This document shows positions 7,764-34,617 of a stretch of 34,617 nt of DNA, in pieces. Both the position numbers and the translations under genes were made by a program. This DNA comes from a virus. Lineage: Duplodnaviria; Heunggongvirae; Uroviricota; Caudoviricetes. Positions within the stretch are counted from its first letter, which is position 1. Each line of letters begins with the position of its first letter. The stretch lies in the IMG/VR virus record IMGVR_UViG_2541047909_000003. The stretch is one strand, 5' to 3'. The notes beneath the pieces were generated by a model. It was given only the letters and a program-made list of their open reading frames with translations. It searched no databases and was not told the DNA's origin.

Positions 7764-8444
7764 TTATCCCTGTCGCCCGACAACCACGACCATTCCGCCC
7801 CCGCCTTCATCACGGGTGCTGATGTCCTGGGATATACGGCGGGAGCCAACCAGCATTTCCCCGTAAGGCACCGGCATCGGGTTCCCCTGGGCAATCATGT
7901 TATCCAGCGAGGAAAAGTACGTGTTCTGTCTGCCGTTATCCGTTGCGCGGTAATCCGGTGTTTTTGCCTTCGGGGCCAGCATCTGGGCCACACCGCCCAG
8001 AATCATGCTGGCTCCAAGTGAAAACAGCATCGTGGTGGCAGAAAAACCACCGGCTGCCAGGGCTGAACCCCATAACGCCATTGATGCCCCGGCAGTGAAG
8101 AAAGAGCCCACGATGGCTGCCGCCCCCAGCACAATCTGCAGTCCACCCTTTCCGGCCCCGGCCAGTCGCGGCACAATATGGATGACCGTTCCCTCACCCA
8201 GCTGTTCGTGAAGACGGGCGTACACCGCCTCCGGTGCCGTGTCATAACCGGCAATACGTATCTGGTACCAGCCTTCGTTCATCTGACGGCGAAAGCCCGG
8301 CACCTGTAACGACAGCGCCCGGATGGCTTCCGCTGCCGTGTTCACATACAGGCTGAGGCGGCGGCCAAATCGTTGTAAATCCCCGTGAAGGCAGATGCGT
8401 GCCAGTGGCGGTGACGCCAGACAGAATGCGTTCGTCGTTGCCAT
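7764..8444 (-). CDS. I: tail tip assembly protein I
   Basis: 226 aa; MATTNAFCLASPPLARICLHGDLQRFGRR resembles lambda I N-terminus; Gly/Ala-rich C-terminal region. Confidence 0.9.
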   Translation of the reverse strand: MATTNAFCLASPPLARICLHGDLQRFGRRLSLYVNTAAEAIRALSLQVPGFRRQMNEGWYQIRIAGYDTAPEAVYARLHEQLGEGTVIHIVPRLAGAGKGGLQIVLGAAAIVGSFFTAGASMALWGSALAAGGFSATTMLFSLGASMILGGVAQMLAPKAKTPDYRATDNGRQNTYFSSLDNMIAQGNPMPVPYGEMLVGSRRISQDISTRDEGGGGMVVVVGRQG

Positions 8445-19990: not shown

Positions 19991-20021
19991 GGAGTTTACT
20001 CACATCTGACAAAATCAATAT

Positions 20022-20048
20022 AAACAGCCCCTCCGGAGAGGGGCTGGA
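20022..20048 (-). terminator. terminator-like hairpin (minus-strand orientation)
   Basis: cagcccctc-cgga-gaggggctg 9-bp stem followed by T/A-rich tract on minus strand. Confidence 0.4.
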
Positions 20049-20411
20049 GAGTGGCGCTATGTGCCATTGCATGGTGCCGGGTGCCTCCCGGTGAATTCAG
20101 TACCAGCACCTGAATCCGCGATTATCCCATATACCTACTCGCTGATTGCCCCTCCGCACAGGGGGATTCACCATGCGATGTAATTTTTAACAAATTCTCC
20201 GGCAGCCAGACAATCATCAAGCTGTGGAATTGTGAGGTATTTAAAAATTTCAACGGGTAACTGATACCCTGCTAATCGCCTGATGCTTTCTTTTTCAGCA
20301 ACGGGAAAGCAACAACCACACACCCGCCACCAAAACACCATCAGACAGCACCGACATTATCCGGCTGCTGAAGTCCACCATCACCACCAGAAACAACAGG
20401 AGTGCAACCAC

Positions 20412-20456
20412 AGCTGCTTAGAAGGCAATTGCTCTGTCCGGCTGAGCTAACAACGC
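20412..20456 (-). pseudogene. truncated tRNA-Arg(UCU)-like remnant
   Basis: Acceptor 5' strand, D-arm (GCTCAGCCGGACAGAGC) and anticodon arm with CTTCTAA loop present, but no T-arm or matching 3' acceptor strand. Confidence 0.4.
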
Positions 20457-20469
20457 ATGATGCAGATAA

Positions 20470-20546
20470 TGGACCGCCATCGGGGACTTGAACCCCGCGC
20501 AGCCAGCTTCGAAGGCTGGCGCTCTATCCCGATGAGCTAATGGCGG
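20470..20546 (-). tRNA. tRNA-Arg (anticodon UCG)
   Basis: Full cloverleaf by hand-fold: 7-bp acceptor stem, D-arm, anticodon loop CTTCGAA, T-arm CGGGG-TTCAAGT-CCCCG, encoded CCA. Confidence 0.8.
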
Positions 20547-20553
20547 TATGTGA

Positions 20554-20629
20554 TGGTGGCCCTTGCTGGATTTGAACCAGCGACCTGGCGATTATGAGTC
20601 GCTCGCTCTCACCACTGAGCTAAAGGGCC
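20554..20629 (-). tRNA. tRNA-Ile2 (anticodon CAU, lysidine-type; ileX/ileZ-like)
   Basis: Full cloverleaf; anticodon loop CTCATAA; body nearly identical to E. coli ileX as recalled; encoded CCA. Confidence 0.85.
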
Positions 20630-24998: not shown

Positions 24999-25154
24999 TT
25001 ACTCCTCAGGTTCGTAAGCTGTGAAGACAGCGACCTCCGTCTGGCCGGTTCGGAGTCGTACCTCGCAGAGGTCTTTCCTCGTTACCAGTGCCGTCACTAT
25101 GACGGTTAAACAGATGACGATCAGGGCGATTAACATCGCCTTTTGCTGCTTCAT
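24999..25154 (-). CDS. hok: Hok/Gef-family type I toxin
   Basis: MKQQKAMLIALIVICLTVIVTALVTRKDLCEVRLRTGQTEVAVFTAYEPEE, near-identical to HokD/RelF as recalled. Confidence 0.85.
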   Translation of the reverse strand: MKQQKAMLIALIVICLTVIVTALVTRKDLCEVRLRTGQTEVAVFTAYEPEE

Positions 25155-25330
25155 AGCCTGCTTCCCCTTGCCTTTCGGCACGTAAGAGGCTAACCTACAT
25201 TTGTGAGACATAGATTGGGCCTCAGATTAATGTTAAGCGTCTTGCAGGACGCGAAATGTTAACTGGGGCTTTTCTCTATCTGCCTTTCAGTGTTCATGCC
25301 TGAGACAGATAGCCTCAAGCACCCGCAGCC
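25155..25330. promoter_or_regulatory. hok leader with predicted antisense sok RNA and fold-back elements
   Basis: Leader contains inverted segments (gcttgaggctatctgtctcaggcatg) typical of hok mRNA structure; exact sok ends not determined. Confidence 0.35.
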
Positions 25331-25391: not shown

Positions 25392-26078
25392 TCACTCCTT
25401 CTCTTCTTTTCCGTAGTGGAGTTGGCCAATTTTGATAAGAGGGCGTCCCTGAGATTTGCGGTGTAGATTGGTATCGCGCAGAGAATACACACAGCCACAA
25501 TATTCCTGCTGATAGAATTTTTCGCGCTTGCTGATTTCAATCATACGGGACGAGCCGCCCTGCTTGCGCCAGTTATAATCCCAGTACACCATACCCGGAT
25601 AATGCGCAACAGCTCGCCGCCCACACTCGTTAACCTGCTGCATATTTTTCCAGCGTGAAATGCCCAGTGAACTGCTGATCACACTGAAACCATTTTCAGC
25701 AGCGTACAACGCTGTCCGCTCAAAACGCATGTCAAAACACATGGTACAACGGATCCCCCTCTCAGGCTCCCATTCCATTCCTTTGGCACGTTCAAACCAG
25801 TTGTCGGTGTCGTAATCAGCATCGATAAACGGCACGCCGTGTTGTTCAGCAAAGCGAATATTTTCATCCTTACGAATTAAATACTCTTTCTGAGGATGAA
25901 TGTTCGGGTTGTAGAAAAAGATGGTGTAGTCGATTCCCGAGGCCTGAAGCGCCTCCATCACTTCACCGGAACATGGAGCACAGCAAGAGTGCAGTAGTAG
26001 TTTGTTTGCCCCGTTTGGGAGCTCCAATTTAGGCCGTTTGAAATCAGCAATAGTCATAAATATTTTTATTGGGGTCAT
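25392..26078 (-). CDS. QueH-like protein (DUF208, epoxyqueuosine reductase family)
   Basis: 228 aa; N-terminal [11 protein letters not shown] and C-terminal EYCGCVYS motifs as recalled for QueH; own AT-rich upstream region. Confidence 0.65.
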
Positions 26079-27682: not shown

Positions 27683-28108
27683 TTAGTGCATCACCACAGC
27701 ATTCCCTGCCGGGCCGCCGCGATTCATCTGGTCATACAAAACAACCGCTGACGCAACAAAATCATCGACATCCTTCACCAGCCGATCCCTCCGTTCGACG
27801 ATCTCACGATAATATTCAGAACTGTGGCTGCGCATACGGGCCACCAGCAAAGGCGGCATCGCCTTTTCGATCGCCGGTAACAGAGCCTGCATTTTTTCAA
27901 CAGCATCAGGGGTGTCTTTCTCTACCCAGCGGAAAATTTTCTGGGTATTGCGAGCCAGGGCTTCCGGATGGCTGTCGTCATACAGTTCTGGGAACGTCAT
28001 ACCCAACTCAAAATAAGCCTGGGTTATTCCAGCTGCTGGAACTTTTTCGCCATCAGGACGCGCCCAGGCATTCATCGCCATGCGGATGTGTTCATGCTTG
28101 ATTTTCAT
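27683..28108 (-). CDS. YdaT-like protein (Rac-type, CII-position)
   Basis: 141 aa starting MKIKHEHI as in Rac YdaT; follows Cro-like gene. Confidence 0.65.
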   Translation of the reverse strand: MKIKHEHIRMAMNAWARPDGEKVPAAGITQAYFELGMTFPELYDDSHPEALARNTQKIFRWVEKDTPDAVEKMQALLPAIEKAMPPLLVARMRSHSSEYYREIVERRDRLVKDVDDFVASAVVLYDQMNRGGPAGNAVVMH

Positions 28109-28359
28109 GAATCAACTCCCATCAGCTTTTTCGTAGTAGTTTTATTCCTGCCAATAGTTAAAATTGCATCGGCAGAAAATAATCCGTTTGATGCAAGAGC
28201 GATTTTTTCAGCGTAATTTGTTTCGCCGGTATATTCTGTGCGAGGCAATTTTCCGTTATCCATCCATTTATAGATTGCTCTTTGGCTGACACCACAAACG
28301 TCGGCCACAACAGCAACGCGAACAGTTTTGATTACATCTTCAAGTGTTTTCTGGTTCAT
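28105..28359 (-). CDS. Cro/YdaS-like HTH regulator
   Basis: About 84 aa from MNQKTLEDVIKTVRVAVVADVCGVSQRAIYKWMDNGKLP; divergent from repressor. Confidence 0.6.
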   Translation of the reverse strand: MNQKTLEDVIKTVRVAVVADVCGVSQRAIYKWMDNGKLPRTEYTGETNYAEKIALASNGLFSADAILTIGRNKTTTKKLMGVDS

Positions 28360-28438
28360 ATCACCCTCACAATGTGAACTTTGAGTACATGCTATAACAG
28401 AACTGACAGTACATTCAAGAGCGAATATCATTGAACTT
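28360..28438. promoter_or_regulatory. divergent promoter/operator region of immunity switch
   Basis: 79-bp spacer with two AGTACAT motifs and a gtgaactt/ttgaactt repeat. Confidence 0.45.
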
Positions 28439-28858
28439 ATGGTTCATGAAGATAAAGCGCGTAAAGAGTTCGCCAGTAGGCTTGCGCTAGCCTGTGAAAA
28501 CGCTGGTTATGAACAACATGGAAGGCAGGCAGAAATTGCCCGTCGAATGAAATTAACACCAAAAGCGGTTAGCAAATGGTTTAATGGCGAAACAATTCCT
28601 CGCCGGGAGAAATTAAGGGAATTAGCAACACTAATAGGAACAACACCAACCTATCTTTTGGGAGAGGATACAGAAGAAAGTGGACAGGTACGTTTCTATC
28701 AGGAGTTAAATCCAAGACAAAAAATCATCATTGACCTTCTGGACGAGCTCCCTGACAGTGAGACAGATGAACTTTTAAAAACTCTTGAAGAGAAAAAACA
28801 GAAGTACAATGCAATTTACGAAGAGTTAGCACGAAAGAAAAAACAAAAAGCCTCTTAA
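28439..28858 (+). CDS. prophage repressor, XRE-family HTH (no S24 peptidase domain)
   Basis: 139 aa; HTH QAEIARRMKLTPKAVSKWFNGETIP; charged/coiled C-terminus. Confidence 0.8.
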   Translation: MVHEDKARKEFASRLALACENAGYEQHGRQAEIARRMKLTPKAVSKWFNGETIPRREKLRELATLIGTTPTYLLGEDTEESGQVRFYQELNPRQKIIIDLLDELPDSETDELLKTLEEKKQKYNAIYEELARKKKQKAS

Positions 28859-28899: not shown

Positions 28900-29070
28900 T
28901 CACTTTATCCCATCTCATTTTTTTACACACAAAATGTACTAAAAGTACTTTACAACAATGAACACAAAGTACATTATATACCTGCCACCACCCCGCCCCA
29001 CAGAATGCAGGGCAATACTTCGAGTTACCAGGCAGTGGTCAGGGGTTAAGTAGCCAGCCCGAGGCGTAAG
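28900..29070 (+). promoter_or_regulatory. early-left promoter/operator candidate
   Basis: TTTACA-N18-ATTATA candidate promoter overlapping GTAC-containing palindromes (aaagtacttt, agtacat) resembling those between repressor and cro. Confidence 0.35.
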
Positions 29071-29154: not shown

Positions 29155-29310
29155 ATGGATACTATCGATCTTGGCAACAGCGAATCTCTGGTATGTGGCG
29201 TGTTCCCCAACCAGGACGGCACGTTCACCGCAATGACGTATACCAAAAGCAAAACGTTTAAAACCGAAAATGGTGCCCGTCGCTGGCTGGAAAGAAACTC
29301 AGGTGAGTGA
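29155..29310 (+). CDS. YdaF-like small protein (DUF1391-like, 51 aa)
   Basis: MDTIDLGNSESLVCGVFPNQDGTFTAMTYTKSKTFKTENGARRWLERNSGE; GAGG RBS. Confidence 0.5.
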   Translation: MDTIDLGNSESLVCGVFPNQDGTFTAMTYTKSKTFKTENGARRWLERNSGE

Positions 29311-29311
29311 T

Positions 29312-29440
29312 ATGGATTTCGACACAATCATGGAAAAGGCTTACGAAGAATACTTCGAAGGCCTTGCCGAAGGCGAAGAAGCTCTCAGCTTCAGTGAGTT
29401 TAAACAGGCGCTTTCCAGTTCGGCAAAATCTAACGGCTGA
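29312..29440 (+). CDS. YdaG-like small acidic protein (43 aa)
   Basis: MDFDTIMEKAYEEYFEGLAEGEEALSFSEFKQALSSSAKSNG; below ORF-track cutoff; translationally coupled to preceding gene. Confidence 0.45.
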   Translation: MDFDTIMEKAYEEYFEGLAEGEEALSFSEFKQALSSSAKSNG

Positions 29441-29469: not shown

Positions 29470-29688
29470 ATGCAGAAACGAGAACCCGTCATCATCGCGC
29501 CAGACTATACCGATGATGAACTTTATGAGTGGATGCACCAGAAAATTAATGCAGCGCAGGATCTGAAATGGGCCAATGAAGCCAGGGCTAAGCAGGCTGA
29601 AAATCTGTCCGCTCTGGAGCAGGATATCACTAATCTGGAAAAAGCAGCGGCATTAAGCATTGCCAGAATGATTACATACCCGCGTTAA
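29470..29688 (+). CDS. hypothetical 72-aa protein (Kil-like position)
   Basis: ORF in early-left operon; no motif recognised. Confidence 0.35.
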   Translation: MQKREPVIIAPDYTDDELYEWMHQKINAAQDLKWANEARAKQAENLSALEQDITNLEKAAALSIARMITYPR

Positions 29689-30255
29689 TAGCTAACCAAC
29701 GAAGCTAAGGTTGGTAATTAAGGAGTTCTCCACGGATGAGGTGGAGTGCGTGCGCCGGACACGGGTGAGCATCCGGCACAGACAGTTTACTGAAAGGATA
29801 TTTCCCTGAAAGGTCAGACCATAACGCGAAAGCGCACGGCGAGGTAGCTGGTTCATAGATAGCCTGTCGTTAAATTTTCGTCGACCGTGCGCTTCCGGTT
29901 GTGGCAATCCGCGAAATGGCGCGGCGGTGAGTATGGCGGGGTTATTCCTTCCCCGTTGAGGACACCGGGTTGTCAGGTTGACCATACGCTTAAGTGACAA
30001 CCCCGCTGCAACGCCCTCTGTTATCAATTTTCTGGTGACGTTTGGCGGTATCAGTTTTACTCCGTGACTGCTCTGCCGCCCTTTTTAAAGTGAATTTTGT
30101 GATGCGGTGAATGCGGCTGAGCGCACGCGGAACAGTTAAAACCAAAAACAGTGTTATGGGTGGATTCTCTGTATCCGGCGTTAATTGTTAACTGGTTAAC
30201 GTCACCTGGAAGCACCAGGCACCGCATCACAAAATTCATTGTTGAGGACGCGATA

Positions 30256-30444
30256 ATGGAAACGTTATTACCAAACGTTAATACGTCTGAAGGTTGTTTT
30301 GAAATTGGTGTCACTATCAGTAACCCTGTATTTACTGAAGATGCCATTAACAAGAGAAAACACGAACGGGAGCTATTAAATAAAATATGCATTCTTTCAA
30401 TGTTGGCCCGTTTACGTCCGATACAAAAAGGATGCTGGCAATGA
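30256..30444 (+). CDS. small protein (62 aa) upstream of exonuclease-fusion gene
   Basis: GAGGA RBS 7 nt upstream of ATG; METLLPNVNTSEGCFEIGVTISNPVFTEDAINKRKHERELLNKICILSMLARLRPIQKGCWQ. Confidence 0.4.
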   Translation: METLLPNVNTSEGCFEIGVTISNPVFTEDAINKRKHERELLNKICILSMLARLRPIQKGCWQ

Positions 30445-30632
30445 ATACAGCATTTGCACTTGTTCTGACAGTTTTTCTTGTTTCCGGAGAGCCAGTTGAT
30501 ATTGCAGTCAGTGTTCACAGGACAATGCAGGAGTGTGTGACTGCAGCAACCGAACAGAAAATTCCCGGTAACTGTTACCCGGTCGATAAAGTTATTCACC
30601 AGGATAATAACGAAATCCCGGCAGGTCTTTAA
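30441..30632 (+). CDS. small exported or membrane-anchored protein (63 aa)
   Basis: ATGA start/stop overlap with preceding ORF; hydrophobic N-terminus MNTAFALVLTVFLVSG; two Cys. Confidence 0.4.
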   Translation: MNTAFALVLTVFLVSGEPVDIAVSVHRTMQECVTAATEQKIPGNCYPVDKVIHQDNNEIPAGL

Positions 30633-30724
30633 AACAGTTCCGTAATAAACATCCGATTTCATTCTTATATGCCAGCAATGGCAGGGATTTGTTCACCCTT
30701 AAATCTGTAATGAGGTAAAACAAA

Positions 30725-33196
30725 ATGAGTAAAGTCTTTATTTGCGCCGCCATTCCGGACGAACAGGCAATAAAGGAAGAAGGTGCCGTCGCTGTAGCCA
30801 CTGCCATTGAAGCCGGTGATGAACGTCGCGCCCGCGCAAAATTTCACTGGCAATTCCTGGAACATTATCCGGCTGCTCAGGACTGCGCTTATAAATTTCT
30901 TGTTTGCGAGGATAAACCCGGTATACCCCGCCCTGCCCTCGATTCCTGGGATGCTGAATATATGCAGGAAAACCGCTGGGATGAGGCGTCTGCTTCCTTT
31001 GTCCCGGTCGAGACTGAATCCGATCCGATGAACGTCACTTTTGACAACCTAGCCCCTGAAGTACAGAACGCTGTCATGGTTAAGTTCCACACATGTGAAA
31101 AAATCACTGTTGATATGGTGATTAGCGCACAGGAATTGTTGCAGGAAGACATGGCAACATTCGACGGCCATATCGTTGAAGCGTTGATGAAAATGCCAGA
31201 AGTTAACGCTATGTATCCGGAGCTTAAGCTGCATGCCATCGGGTGGGTTAAGCATAAATGTAAGCCTGGTGCCAAATGGCCCGAAATTCAGGCAGAGATG
31301 CGCATCTGGAAAAAACGTCGCGAAGGTGAACGCAAGGAAGCCGGAAAATACACGTCTGTTGTTGATCTCGCCCGCGCCAGAGCCAATCAACAGCACACTG
31401 AAAATTCAACAGGAAAAATCAACCCGGTCATTGCTGCCATTCATCGCGAATACAAGCAGACATGGAAAACACTGGATGACGAACTGGCCTACGCTCTCTG
31501 GCCTGGTGATGTGGATGCCGGAAACATTGACGGCAGCATCCATCGCTGGGCAAAAAATGAAGTTATCGACAACGACCGCGAAGACTGGAAGCGTATCTCG
31601 GCATCAATGCGCAAACAGCCTGATGCCCTTCGCTACGACCGCCAGACTATTTTTGGCCTTGTCCGTGAACGTCCGATCGACATTCACAAAGACCCTGTGG
31701 CACTGAACAAATACATTACTGAATACCTGAATACAAAGGGCGTGTTTGAAGATGAAGGAACAAATCAGAGCGCAACTGATACTCTCTCGTCGCCAGTACC
31801 AGAAACTGATGCAGTGGAAACGGCAATTCCAGACAACGAAAAAACCGAATGCAAAGTGGAAGTCGAACCATCTGTAGAACGTGAGGGGCCGTTCTACTTC
31901 CTCTTCACCGACAAGGATGGCGAAAAATACGGTCGCGCAAACAAACTTTCTGGTCTGGATAAGGCGCTGTCTGCTGGGGCTACTGAAATCACGAAAGAAG
32001 AATATTTCGCCCGCAAAAACGGTACATACTCAGGTTCACAACAAAATACTGGTGCATCTGACACGACCGCACAACCAGGGTCAGTAAAAGTTACCGCTGA
32101 CGAAGTAAACAAAATTATGCAGGCAGCCAATATCAGCCAGCCTGACGCCGATGAACTGCTTGCAGTATCACGTGGTGAATTTGTTGAAGGGATTAGCGAC
32201 CCGAATGATCCGAAATGGGTTAAGGGGATCCAGACCCGCGATTCTGTGAACCAGAACCAGCAAGAAACGGAACAGAACGACCAGAAAGCGGAACAAAACA
32301 GCCCAAATACGCAACAAAACGAGCCAGAAACGAAACAACCTGAACCAGTAGTGCAACAGGAACCGGAAAAGATCTGCACCGCCTGCGGTCATAGCGGTGG
32401 CGGCAACTGCCCTGATTGTGGTGCGGTGATGGGTGACGCAACATACCAGGAAATATTCGATGGAGAGAATCAGCCTGAAGTTCAGGAAAATGATCCGGAG
32501 GAAATGGAAGGCACTGCGCATCAGCACAAGGAGAACACTGGCGGCAATCAGCATCATGCCAGCGATAGTAAAACTGGCGAGGCGTCAGATCCCTTAATTA
32601 AGGCGAACGGTCATCATAATCTCACATCCACCAGCAGAGCGGGGATTCATCTGATGATCGACCTTGAAACCATGGGAAAAAATCCCGATGCCCCGATTAT
32701 CTCAATAGGTGCAATATTTTTCGATCCGCAAACCGGAGATATGGGACCGGAATTTAGTAAGACTATCGATCTGGAAACTGCTGGCGGAGTCATTGATCGG
32801 GACACCATTAAATGGTGGCTTAAGCAATCACGCGAAGCGCAATCTGCCATTATGACCGATGAAATCCCGTTAGATGATGCACTGTTACAATTGCGGGAAT
32901 TTATCGACGAAAACTCCGGTGAATTTTTTGTTCAGGTCTGGGGAAATGGAGCCAACTTCGACAACACGATTTTGCGCCGTTCATACGAACGGCAGGAGAT
33001 CCCCTGCCCGTGGCGTTACTACAACGATCGCGATGTACGCACAATCGTTGAGCTGGGAAAAGCCATGGACTTCGATGCCAGGGCGGCTATTCCATTCGAA
33101 GGTGAGCGCCACAATGCGCTGGATGATGCCCGTTACCAGGCAAAATACGTTTCAACTATCTGGCAAAAACTGATCCCGAATCAGGCTGATTTTTAA
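30725..33196 (+). CDS. large multidomain protein with C-terminal DEDDh (DnaQ-like) 3'-5' exonuclease domain
   Basis: 823 aa; C-terminal Exo I MIDLETMG, Exo II WGNGANFD, Exo III HNALDDARYQA; CxxC-N9-CxxC zinc ribbon (CTACGHSGGGNCPDCG) inside a Q/E/N-rich linker; N-terminal about 550 aa unassigned. Confidence 0.8.
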   Translation: MSKVFICAAIPDEQAIKEEGAVAVATAIEAGDERRARAKFHWQFLEHYPAAQDCAYKFLVCEDKPGIPRPALDSWDAEYMQENRWDEASASFVPVETESDPMNVTFDNLAPEVQNAVMVKFHTCEKITVDMVISAQELLQEDMATFDGHIVEALMKMPEVNAMYPELKLHAIGWVKHKCKPGAKWPEIQAEMRIWKKRREGERKEAGKYTSVVDLARARANQQHTENSTGKINPVIAAIHREYKQTWKTLDDELAYALWPGDVDAGNIDGSIHRWAKNEVIDNDREDWKRISASMRKQPDALRYDRQTIFGLVRERPIDIHKDPVALNKYITEYLNTKGVFEDEGTNQSATDTLSSPVPETDAVETAIPDNEKTECKVEVEPSVEREGPFYFLFTDKDGEKYGRANKLSGLDKALSAGATEITKEEYFARKNGTYSGSQQNTGASDTTAQPGSVKVTADEVNKIMQAANISQPDADELLAVSRGEFVEGISDPNDPKWVKGIQTRDSVNQNQQETEQNDQKAEQNSPNTQQNEPETKQPEPVVQQEPEKICTACGHSGGGNCPDCGAVMGDATYQEIFDGENQPEVQENDPEEMEGTAHQHKENTGGNQHHASDSKTGEASDPLIKANGHHNLTSTSRAGIHLMIDLETMGKNPDAPIISIGAIFFDPQTGDMGPEFSKTIDLETAGGVIDRDTIKWWLKQSREAQSAIMTDEIPLDDALLQLREFIDENSGEFFVQVWGNGANFDNTILRRSYERQEIPCPWRYYNDRDVRTIVELGKAMDFDARAAIPFEGERHNALDDARYQAKYVSTIWQKLIPNQADF

Positions 33197-33260: not shown

Positions 33261-33509
33261 ATGGCAAGACTTATTCTGCTCACTGAGTGGGCAAAAGAGG
33301 AATTCAGTGAACCGGTCCCTACTCCGAGTACGTTAAGTAAATACGCTAAAGCCGGAATGATATTTCCTCTCCCCAAAAAAGTTGGAAGACGCTGGCGAGT
33401 GGATCCGCAAGCTCGCTTTGTCGGAATGGTAAACAAGCCGGAGGTGATCGCCACAGATCACCCTGCTTTGAAGAGGATACTGGAAGATGGCGCGCCCGCG
33501 AAAATATAA
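33261..33509 (+). CDS. xis: excisionase
   Basis: 82 aa; LLTEWAKEEF...FPLPKKVGRRWRV pattern like lambda Xis; overlaps int start. Confidence 0.75.
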   Translation: MARLILLTEWAKEEFSEPVPTPSTLSKYAKAGMIFPLPKKVGRRWRVDPQARFVGMVNKPEVIATDHPALKRILEDGAPAKI

Positions 33510-34617
33510 AACCGATGTTCCGGGATTATCTCCGTATTTTGACAAAAGAAATAACAAAGTTTACTGGCGTTACAGGCATCCCATAACAGGCAAAAATCAC
33601 GGTCTCGGCAGTATTGACCAGAAACTGGCAGAAACTATTGCAGCAGAAGCGAACAGCCGTCTTGCCCGGCAGCAAATGGAACAAATGCTCAGTCTGCAGG
33701 AGAAAATTATTAGTGATACCGGCGGTTCATCAACCGTTACCATTTTTCTGAATAATTACAGAAAAATTCAACAGGAAAGATATGAAAACGGCGAGATCAA
33801 ACTCAACACGCTGAAACAGAAAGCGGCCCCTCTCAGGGTATTTGATGAACGTTTTGGCACCAGACCGTTAGATGCCATAACCGTAAAAGATGTGGTATCA
33901 GTACTGGAAGAGTACAAGGCCAGAGGACATAACAGAATGGGACAAATTTTCAGGAAGGTACTGATCGATGTTTTCCGGGAAGCTCAGCAAACGGGCGATG
34001 TCCCGCCAGGCTTTAACCCTGCAGAATCGGCAAAAAAACCGCAGGTGCGGATATCAAGACAGCGACTGACTTTTGATGAGTGGATGATGATTTATAACGC
34101 AGCGGAAAAGGATGGTTACTTTTTACAGCGCGGTATGCTGCTGGCACTGATGACAGGCCAGCGCCTTTCAGATATTTGCAAAATGCAATTTTCGGATATC
34201 CGGGATGGTTATCTTCATGTCGAACAGCAAAAAACAGGAACCCGGATTGCCATCCCTCTGGCTCTGCGTTGCGATAAATTAAATCTCACCCTGGATGATG
34301 TAGTGTCATCCTGCCGCGATTGTGTTCTTAGTCCGTGGCTATTGCACCACCATCACGCGAAAGGGACAGCTAAGCGCGGCGGGATGGTTAAGCCAGCAAC
34401 ATTAACCGTTGCATTTAAAAAAGCCCGGGATTCTGTGGATTACAACTGGCGTGCTAATGGCACCCCACCCTCTTTCCATGAGCAGAGATCTTTATCAGAG
34501 CGATTGTTCAGAGAGCAGGGGGTTGATACCAAAATTTTGCTAGGCCATTCGAATCAAAAAATGACCGATATTTACAACGATGTACGCGGTAAGGAGTGGA
34601 AAAAACTGGTCATTTGA
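33487..34617 (+). CDS. int: tyrosine integrase (lambda Int family)
   Basis: 376 aa; C-terminal catalytic region colinear with lambda Int (GQRLSDICKMQFSDIRDGYLHVEQQKTG..., HEQRSLSERL, LLGHSNQKMTDIY). Confidence 0.9.
   Translation: MARPRKYKTDVPGLSPYFDKRNNKVYWRYRHPITGKNHGLGSIDQKLAETIAAEANSRLARQQMEQMLSLQEKIISDTGGSSTVTIFLNNYRKIQQERYENGEIKLNTLKQKAAPLRVFDERFGTRPLDAITVKDVVSVLEEYKARGHNRMGQIFRKVLIDVFREAQQTGDVPPGFNPAESAKKPQVRISRQRLTFDEWMMIYNAAEKDGYFLQRGMLLALMTGQRLSDICKMQFSDIRDGYLHVEQQKTGTRIAIPLALRCDKLNLTLDDVVSSCRDCVLSPWLLHHHHAKGTAKRGGMVKPATLTVAFKKARDSVDYNWRANGTPPSFHEQRSLSERLFREQGVDTKILLGHSNQKMTDIYNDVRGKEWKKLVI

Follow-up and report, generated by a model that had tools for sequence, protein, structure and literature searches.

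A DEDDh exonuclease domain replaces the RecE-type nuclease, with loss of RecT, in YdfE of a Qin-like Escherichia coli prophage

The IMG/VR virus record IMGVR_UViG_2541047909_000003 (Caudoviricetes; 34,617 nucleotides, one strand; this whole stretch is called the window below) contains, immediately ahead of its excisionase and integrase genes, an intact ydfE gene coding for a protein of 823 amino acids (aa). In this protein the PD-(D/E)XK nuclease typical of RecE has been swapped for a DEDDh exonuclease domain resembling DexA and Rv2179c, and the swap accompanies the loss of RecT. The dicBF operon to which the gene belongs was already known, as were the DicB and YdfD proteins encoded just upstream; what is new is the large protein itself, a RecE-family scaffold bearing an exchanged exonuclease and lacking a RecT partner. 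The gene is common in E. coli, where it is often present in multiple copies and outnumbers genuine recE; it frequently carries the label exonuclease VIII. Its nuclease is predicted to have the reverse polarity and lacks an annealase partner, and such genes should not be read in annotation as RecET recombination systems.

Organization of the 823-aa protein

The original prediction described a large open reading frame (ORF) preceded by two small ones in an early-left operon, and all three were recovered on the plus strand at 30256-30444, 30441-30632 and 30725-33196 (62, 63 and 823 aa). Residues 1-256 of the largest product are 95% identical to YdfE of strain K-12, the product of a pseudogene cut by IS2, and the 823-aa protein is consequently the full-length YdfE. 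Its layout is as follows.

30725-33196, plus strand: 823-aa exonuclease gene, intact ydfE; RecE-family scaffold fused to a DEDDh domain
30725-31339, plus strand: domain 1 (aa 1-205), alpha/beta plus helical; AlphaFold 2 confidence score (pLDDT) above 90; probable remote homologue of RecE 1-230
31457-31753, plus strand: module B (aa 245-343), helical; pLDDT above 90; shared with Rac RecE and better conserved than any other module of the family
31877-32035, plus strand: small beta-beta-alpha domain (aa 385-437), from the AlphaFold 2 model; a gap in the RecE alignment
32149-32598, plus strand: segment aa 475-625, including the Q/E/N-rich acidic linker; 76% identical to Rac recE (blastn), largely disordered by prediction
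32375-32419, plus strand: putative zinc ribbon CxxC-N7-CxxC (C551, C554, C562, C565), from the sequence; pLDDT about 60
32648-33163, plus strand: DEDDh domain, predicted 3'-5' exonuclease (aa 642-813); Pfam PF16473, E = 8e-67; similar to DexA (PDB 8KEL) by sequence and fold

AlphaFold predicts beads on a string, with confident domains at residues 1-205, 245-343, 385-437 and 640-820 connected by long, disordered, acidic Q-rich linkers and a weakly predicted zinc ribbon; about one quarter of the protein is predicted to be disordered. The beta-beta-alpha domain is found in many relatives and is missing from Rac RecE. The zinc ribbon had been proposed with a spacer of nine residues; the two CxxC pairs do lie in a Q/E/N-rich linker (Q/E/N/P-rich, acidic and predicted disordered around the cysteines), and their actual spacer is N7. 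The motif is present in Rac RecE and in two relatives (L007 and L013 of the loci described below), and just one of 65 long representatives of the family has it. Judged from the cysteine pattern, the ribbon is limited to an E. coli clade comprising the 823-aa protein, Rac RecE, L007 and L013.

RecE homology of the N-terminal region

Judging by sequence, the N-terminal 625 aa are a RecE-family region. Residues 262-625 align to residues 278-591 of Rac RecE (BLASTP, E = 2e-59), with near-identity in the stretch surrounding the zinc ribbon, and the alignment ends just short of the RecE nuclease domain. The NCBIfam model NF007259 (exodeoxyribonuclease VIII) matches at positions 270-603 of 877 (E = 1.4e-79, 268.3 bits), and PHROG 607 matches the RecE-type region at 4e-94. 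Further upstream, residues 1-210 and RecE 1-230 give a collinear hhalign match of 192 columns (probability 78%, E = 1.9e-5), and residues 1-210 are probably a remote homologue of RecE 1-230. The original prediction had left the N-terminal region unassigned, a view that these BLASTP, NCBIfam and hhalign matches overturn. It had also proposed profile and structure searches of this region: the former revealed the RecE homology, while the latter returned no solved or viral predicted relative. Foldseek matches of the full-length model in the PDB were confined to the DEDDh domain, a Foldseek search of viral predicted structures gave no N-terminal match at E <0.001, and when PDB sequences were searched with profiles of the N-terminal region and module B, only spurious matches to de novo designed proteins came up. 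The copy of Pfam that we scanned holds no model for the N-terminal region. Two precomputed Pfam accessions, PF27430 and PF27432, sit on this region in close relatives, and their curated names might already describe N-terminal domains.

The 823-aa protein and Rac RecE share the same early-left operon position, ahead of xis-int, and a homologous non-nuclease region, but they differ at three points. RecE ends in a PD-(D/E)XK 5'-3' nuclease (residues 606-866), the 823-aa protein in a DEDDh domain; recT follows recE in Rac, whereas none lies beside the 823-aa gene; and only the latter protein has the extra small domain at residues 385-437. We rejected filing the protein as RecE on grounds of nuclease, RecT and score alike. 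PF12684, the Pfam model of the PD-(D/E)XK nuclease, has no match in the 823-aa protein, BLAST shows no similarity to RecE 600-866, and the 268.3 bits scored against NF007259 fall below its equivalog cut-off of 1269. The original prediction had named a standard RecE N-terminal region together with a nearby RecT gene as grounds for abandoning it; a RecE-type region was found and no RecT gene.

Nuclease type and presence of RecT

To delimit the family, residues 1-344 were searched against 1.84 billion representative proteins, which yielded 171 clusters. Module mapping revealed two alternative first domains, a YdfE type and a RecE type, followed by a module B (residues 258-345 in this mapping) that is nearly universal in the family. 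At the C-terminal end, members have a DEDDh domain, a PD-(D/E)XK domain (PF12684) or a segment with no Pfam match, and each of the two first domains occurs with each of the two nucleases. The gene is also a mosaic at the DNA level: nucleotides 1-1494 match a gene for a 987-aa protein with a PD-(D/E)XK end (locus L012) at 88% identity, and nucleotides 1425-1874 match Rac recE at 76%.

Besides the window, DEDDh-ended members are found in L005 (phage mEp460_ev081), L007 (phage vB_EcoS-813R8), L010 and L013 (both E. albertii) and L011 (E. ruysiae). All the DEDDh-ended loci examined lead directly into xis/int without an annealase gene, and BLAST with RecT found no match in them. In the window, xis starts 64 nucleotides past the end of the 823-aa ORF, and the annotation of the identical prophage in E. 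coli THO-006 includes no annealase at all; the claim that no RecT or Bet gene is adjacent thus holds. By contrast, each of the PD-(D/E)XK-ended relatives in L012, L017, L018, L020 and Rac is followed by a gene recognized by the Pfam RecT model (E = 1e-36 to 3e-44) that starts within about 15 nucleotides. The closest allele with the other cargo is L012 (6293-10305, plus strand), whose N-terminal modules are 86-94% identical to those of the 823-aa protein and whose RecT gene lies 12 nucleotides downstream of the PD-(D/E)XK end. Since nuclease type tracks the presence or absence of RecT across loci, the unit exchanged appears to be a PD-(D/E)XK nuclease plus recT for a DEDDh domain. Moreover, as a single scaffold is found with two unrelated nucleases, the target of the scaffold is probably independent of nuclease type; a scaffold with two cargos makes a natural test case for the N-terminal region of RecE, which has long lacked an explanation.

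The DEDDh version prevails in E. coli. DNA coding for the DEDDh domain was found in 4088 of 5426 complete genomes (75%), at 8142 places, compared with 1735 of 5426 (32%) for the nuclease domain of Rac RecE. The 3.2-kb region comprising the small ORFs and the large gene is present with at least 80% coverage in 3465 of the 5426 genomes, with a median of 2 places per genome, a recurrence far above chance.

Relatives of about 755 aa from Erwinia and Pantoea (L015, 6347-9120, and L016, 6347-9168, both plus strand) have the same N-terminal modules. Their C-terminal ~320 aa have no Pfam match and may be a third type of cargo; the next gene is of the Sipho_Gp157 family, not RecT or xis.

The DEDDh domain and its relatives

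The prediction of a C-terminal DnaQ-like DEDDh exonuclease domain was confirmed. The Pfam model PF16473 (Rv2179c-like) matches along positions 2-177 of 177 with 224.8 bits, its threshold being 27. Among solved structures, T4 DexA (PDB 8KEL; sequence E = 1.4e-6, fold E = 4.6e-8) is the nearest, followed by RNase T and oligoribonuclease in terms of fold. All five catalytic residues are present: D646, E648, D746, H796 and D801 align respectively to D7, E9, the conserved FD aspartate, H186 and D191 of DexA. The two domains share the DEDDh fold and these residues, but their identity is only about 25%, and the DexA insertions are absent from the domain of the 823-aa protein. Furthermore, DexA and its E. 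coli homologue EcD stand alone, while the DEDDh domain is here fused to a RecE-type region of 640 aa.

Kang et al. (NAR 2025) reported that T4 DexA recognizes DNA containing 5-hydroxymethylcytosine (5hmC) through W152 and D169, and the loss of D90, replaced by A78 in EcD, is proposed to limit activity to modified DNA (PMC12153337). For comparison with EcD we used a 189-aa EcD-like protein recovered through a 17-mer of the EcD forward primer, which may correspond to HAK9828821.1; the protein fits all the stated features of EcD (MIDTET start, A78), and the 3' end of its gene equals the reverse primer except for one base. This protein is 39% identical to the DEDDh domain of the 823-aa protein. 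DexA W152 is retained in the EcD-like protein and aligns to Y766 in ours; D169, which lies within a DexA insertion where the alignment is uncertain, aligns to K in ours and to E in the EcD-like protein; and D90 is kept as D718. With W152 replaced by Y766, the D169 position not conserved and D90 retained, the domain does not show the HREX signature, and we rejected its filing as a 5hmC-recognizing HREX enzyme of the DexA/EcD type. A PADLOC scan gave one generic match, to a Cas-associated DEDDh model (8.9e-6).

The domain also occurs as a stand-alone gene (~180 aa) in 738 phage records, with temperate as well as virulent phages represented, and these genes lie in early DNA-metabolism regions. 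In Salmonella phage c341 the order is Rad52-like erf, ssb, DEDDh and abc2; in phage 9NA the gene sits between helicase and primase genes; and in P2-like phages it is found upstream of a replication gene. Such stand-alone PF16473 exonucleases (c341 gp30, mEp460 gp26, 9NA gp71) consist of one domain and measure about 170-190 aa, the enterobacterial ones being 55-60% identical to residues 642-818 of the 823-aa protein. The c341 gene, between ssb and abc2, is close to a Rad52-like annealase gene, whereas the 823-aa gene has no annealase. Non-mobilizable plasmids of about 27-75 kb carry the stand-alone domain as well, and one of them also has phage-type regulator genes.

A further comparison can be drawn with the TONDO/ISG20-like proteins (bioRxiv 2026, PMC13344964), which likewise are DEDDh exonucleases encoded by prophages and joined to an auxiliary domain whose function is unknown. 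These differ from the 823-aa protein in having been chosen as ISG20 homologues of <500 aa and in acting on the 3' UTRs (untranslated regions) of RNA phages (PMC13344964); the likeness is one of architecture.

Proposed role and alternative explanations

On balance we favour, with a confidence slightly above even, a DNA 3'-end exonuclease that trims or degrades ends in phage DNA metabolism. Following repressor loss or induction, DicF, DicB and YdfD would arrest the host while the large exonuclease is co-produced. The RecE-type scaffold would deliver the DEDDh domain to RecE's own target, probably DNA ends or a host partner, where the domain would remove nucleotides from DNA 3' ends in the 3'-5' direction by a Mg2+-dependent two-metal mechanism. 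The protein would in this way trim 3' ends or flaps, or degrade linear DNA, in the manner of T4 DexA. The original prediction had offered non-canonical recombination, defence and anti-defence as functions; we infer that non-canonical recombination or DNA-end processing is the most consistent of these, and specific support was found neither for defence nor for anti-defence.

Several points weigh against this reading. The association of nuclease type with RecT comes from a modest sample, the module B search having given 11 loci and the context survey about a dozen in all. The function of the N-terminal region of RecE is itself unknown (PMC11611040), so the notion of a targeting scaffold is a conjecture. 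PF16473 is named for an exoribonuclease, and RNA could therefore be the substrate. EcD, the E. coli homologue of DexA without the D90 tetramer contact, is reported to protect against T4 (PMC12153337). A 2023 study of the dicBF operon noted that DicF, DicB and YdfD are the only products of it to have been characterized, and found no K-12 transcript running into ydfE (PMC10448788). Lastly, the literature on ydfE, phage Rv2179c, prophage DEDDh exonucleases and exonuclease VIII with dicB gave no functional study of the 823-aa protein; nothing describing the nuclease swap was found there either.

That the protein is instead a prophage defence nuclease, degrading the nucleic acid of superinfecting phages (modified DNA in the manner of EcD/HREX, or RNA-phage genomes in the manner of TONDO/ISG20-like enzymes), seems to us unlikely, though it is the best placed of the alternatives. 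EcD conferred T4 resistance from a plasmid (PMC12153337), prophage DEDDh enzymes with auxiliary domains guard against RNA phages (PMC13344964), the neighbouring DicB itself blocks certain phages (PMC8835842), and the gene is very frequent in E. coli prophages, as the count of genomes with DEDDh-domain DNA attests. Yet the 5hmC-recognition residues are not conserved while D90 is kept, the probable EcD-like protein is only 39% identical and the PADLOC match is generic. The gene lies in an early operon presumably under repressor control rather than at a constitutive moron position, the K-12 transcripts were not seen to reach ydfE (PMC10448788), and the stand-alone homologues are located in replication and recombination modules.

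A bolder idea sees in the RecE-family N-terminal region a nuclease-agnostic targeting platform whose commonest cargo in E. coli is the DEDDh domain rather than the recombinogenic 5'-3' nuclease with RecT. The domain would act early and destroy either the DNA ends of rival phages or 3'-ended immune nucleic acids, such as the multicopy single-stranded DNA (msDNA) of retrons and the complementary DNA (cDNA) of defence reverse transcriptases; taken as a whole, we regard this as speculative and rather doubtful. If true, it would mean that a conflict function lies hidden under a routine annotation as exonuclease or exonuclease VIII. The importance of the protein would rise if such a role in conflict or a new role in DNA-end processing were proved, or if it helped to explain the N-terminal region of RecE.

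A true analogue of RecE would start recombination of phage DNA either with host RecA/RecFOR or with an annealase that acts in trans and comes from another prophage, such as Rac, or from a Red-type phage; this we consider distinctly unlikely. The gene does occupy the position of recE between a division inhibitor gene and xis-int, as in the Rac order kilR ... recE-recT ... xis-int, the RecE scaffold is common to both proteins (BLASTP, hhalign), and several lambdoid prophages per genome are usual in E. coli, as the median of 2 places suggests. The full-length N-terminal region of RecE boosts linear-linear recombination (PMC11611040). RecT is gone from every DEDDh-ended locus examined, however, and kept at every PD-(D/E)XK-ended one, and RecE-RecT and Exo-Bet are normally cognate partners. 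Single-strand-annealing and RecA pathways use 3' tails. A 3'-5' exonuclease leaves 5' tails instead of the 3' tails used by RecT, Redbeta and RecA; because this polarity would destroy the 3' tails on which annealases and RecA depend, and an annealase gene is missing, the start of annealing-based recombination is an unlikely function.

An anti-defence nuclease, expressed early and destroying retron msDNA, the cDNA of defence reverse transcriptases or immune signalling oligonucleotides, appears improbable. Early lytic expression would coincide with the need for counter-defence, anti-defence genes are often located in early accessory regions, and action on short single-stranded DNA or RNA is plausible for a DEDDh enzyme with fold likeness to RNase T and oligoribonuclease. 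According to a preprint, SbcB, a 3'-5' exonuclease of the host, contributes to controlling how the DRT10 reverse-transcriptase defence is activated. Against this, the 823-aa protein has no match to characterized anti-defence families, and the large RecE-type scaffold would be left unexplained.

A decaying or functionless RecE remnant born of illegitimate fusion, which the disrupted copies of K-12 and Shigella (L014) and the predicted disorder might evoke, is very improbable given intact ORFs of 811-823 aa with 66-99% identity in E. coli, E. albertii, E. ruysiae and phage records (mEp460_ev081; vB_EcoS-813R8, 813 aa), conservation of all catalytic residues, the presence of the domain in 75% of complete E. 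coli genomes, and the occurrence of the DEDDh fusion with the other N-terminal type as well.

The dicBF operon and the surrounding prophage

A prophage integrated next to ompW in E. coli THO-006 matches the window at 100% identity. The region studied is the distal half of the early operon of PL type (dicBF) of a Qin-like E. coli lambdoid prophage, with the order repressor, ydfA-ydfB-ydfC, DicF small RNA, dicB, ydfD, large exonuclease gene, xis and int on the plus strand. The assignment to an early-left operon was therefore right, transcription running away from the repressor and toward xis-int. The features around the exonuclease gene are:

28439-28858, plus strand: helix-turn-helix repressor gene (cI-like) at the position of dicA, annotated ORF; 25% identity to K-12 DicA
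28949-28977, plus strand: candidate sigma-70 promoter at the position of dicBp; TTTACA-17-CATTAT, 9 of 12 consensus matches
29155-29310, plus strand: ydfA homologue (DUF1391); 96% identity to K-12 YdfA
29312-29440, plus strand: ydfB; 100% identity to K-12 YdfB
29470-29688, plus strand: ydfC; 99% identity to K-12 YdfC
30030-30081, plus strand: DicF small RNA, between ydfC and dicB; Rfam RF00039, 76.7 bits (gathering score 48), E = 4.3e-16
30256-30444, plus strand: dicB, cell-division inhibitor, 62 aa; Pfam PF05358, 1.7e-37; NCBIfam NF049927, 3e-39; 89% identity to K-12 DicB
30441-30632, plus strand: ydfD, 63 aa (DUF1482); Pfam PF07358, 3.7e-25; 94% identity to K-12 YdfD
33261-33509, plus strand: excisionase gene (xis); Pfam PF07825 and annotation
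33487-34617, plus strand: lambda-type tyrosine integrase gene (int), reaching the end of the window; Pfam and annotation

The two small ORFs, treated as anonymous in the original prediction, are DicB and YdfD on the strength of their Pfam matches, and with DicF and ydfABC upstream they place the region in the described dicBF operon, which is repressed by DicA (PMC8835842, PMC10448788). The two ORFs overlap: the TGA stop of dicB lies inside the ATG start of ydfD (ATGA), with AAGGA 5' of the latter. The 63-aa protein indeed has a hydrophobic N-terminus, MNTAFALVLTVFLVSG, but the accompanying idea of a signal-like sequence fell. We rejected a signal peptide because the lysis protein YdfD uses its N-terminal part to bind IspG (PMC8835842). 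In K-12, YdfD acts as lysis protein and IspG inhibitor (PMC8835842), and DicB, besides inhibiting cell division, blocks certain phages (PMC8835842; also the title of PMC6832061). The DicF sequence is the same as that of K-12 dicF across the Rfam match. Sigma-70 consensus sites are no more numerous in the region than in shuffled sequence.

The spacer between ydfD and the exonuclease gene measures 92 nucleotides, with a GAGG Shine-Dalgarno sequence 10 nucleotides ahead of the start of the 823-aa ORF. A weak hairpin, TGCCAGCAATGGCA, was noted within this spacer at 30670-30683 (plus strand). The longest transcript detected in K-12 stops past ydfD (PMC10448788), so the spacer with its hairpin may be a point of processing or attenuation.

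Gene order and strand are those of the dicBF operon of Qin in K-12, and YdfA, YdfB, YdfC, DicB and YdfD are 89-100% identical. Unlike Qin, where ydfE is cut by IS2, this prophage has the gene intact together with intact xis and int, and it has kept head, tail and lysis genes. The repressor gene stands in the place expected for dicA, but its product is only 25% identical to DicA and the immunity type thus differs from that of K-12 Qin. The repressor and cro-like pair (28439-28858, plus strand; 28105-28431, minus strand) is unlike that of K-12, yet the downstream operon is 89-100% identical, a mosaic immunity region. Just past this pair lies a gene for a YdaT-family toxin on the minus strand.

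Other features were noted elsewhere in the prophage, all on the minus strand. An STnc100 small RNA at 20016-20206 (Rfam, 133.7 bits) adjoins phage tRNA genes (20016-20629), namely tRNA-Arg(tcg) at 20470-20546 and a tRNA with a CAT anticodon at 20554-20629, called Ile by PGAP; a third tRNA-Arg at about 20380-20456 is annotated by PGAP alone, being found by neither ARAGORN nor Rfam. A hok/sok type I toxin-antitoxin system is present at 25149-25324 and about 24999-25154, where the sok antitoxin RNA (Rfam, 120 bits) adjoins the annotated hokD gene. At about 25392-26057, the early-right region carries a gene annotated as epoxyqueuosine reductase QueH, a tRNA-modification enzyme and an unusual cargo for such a region.

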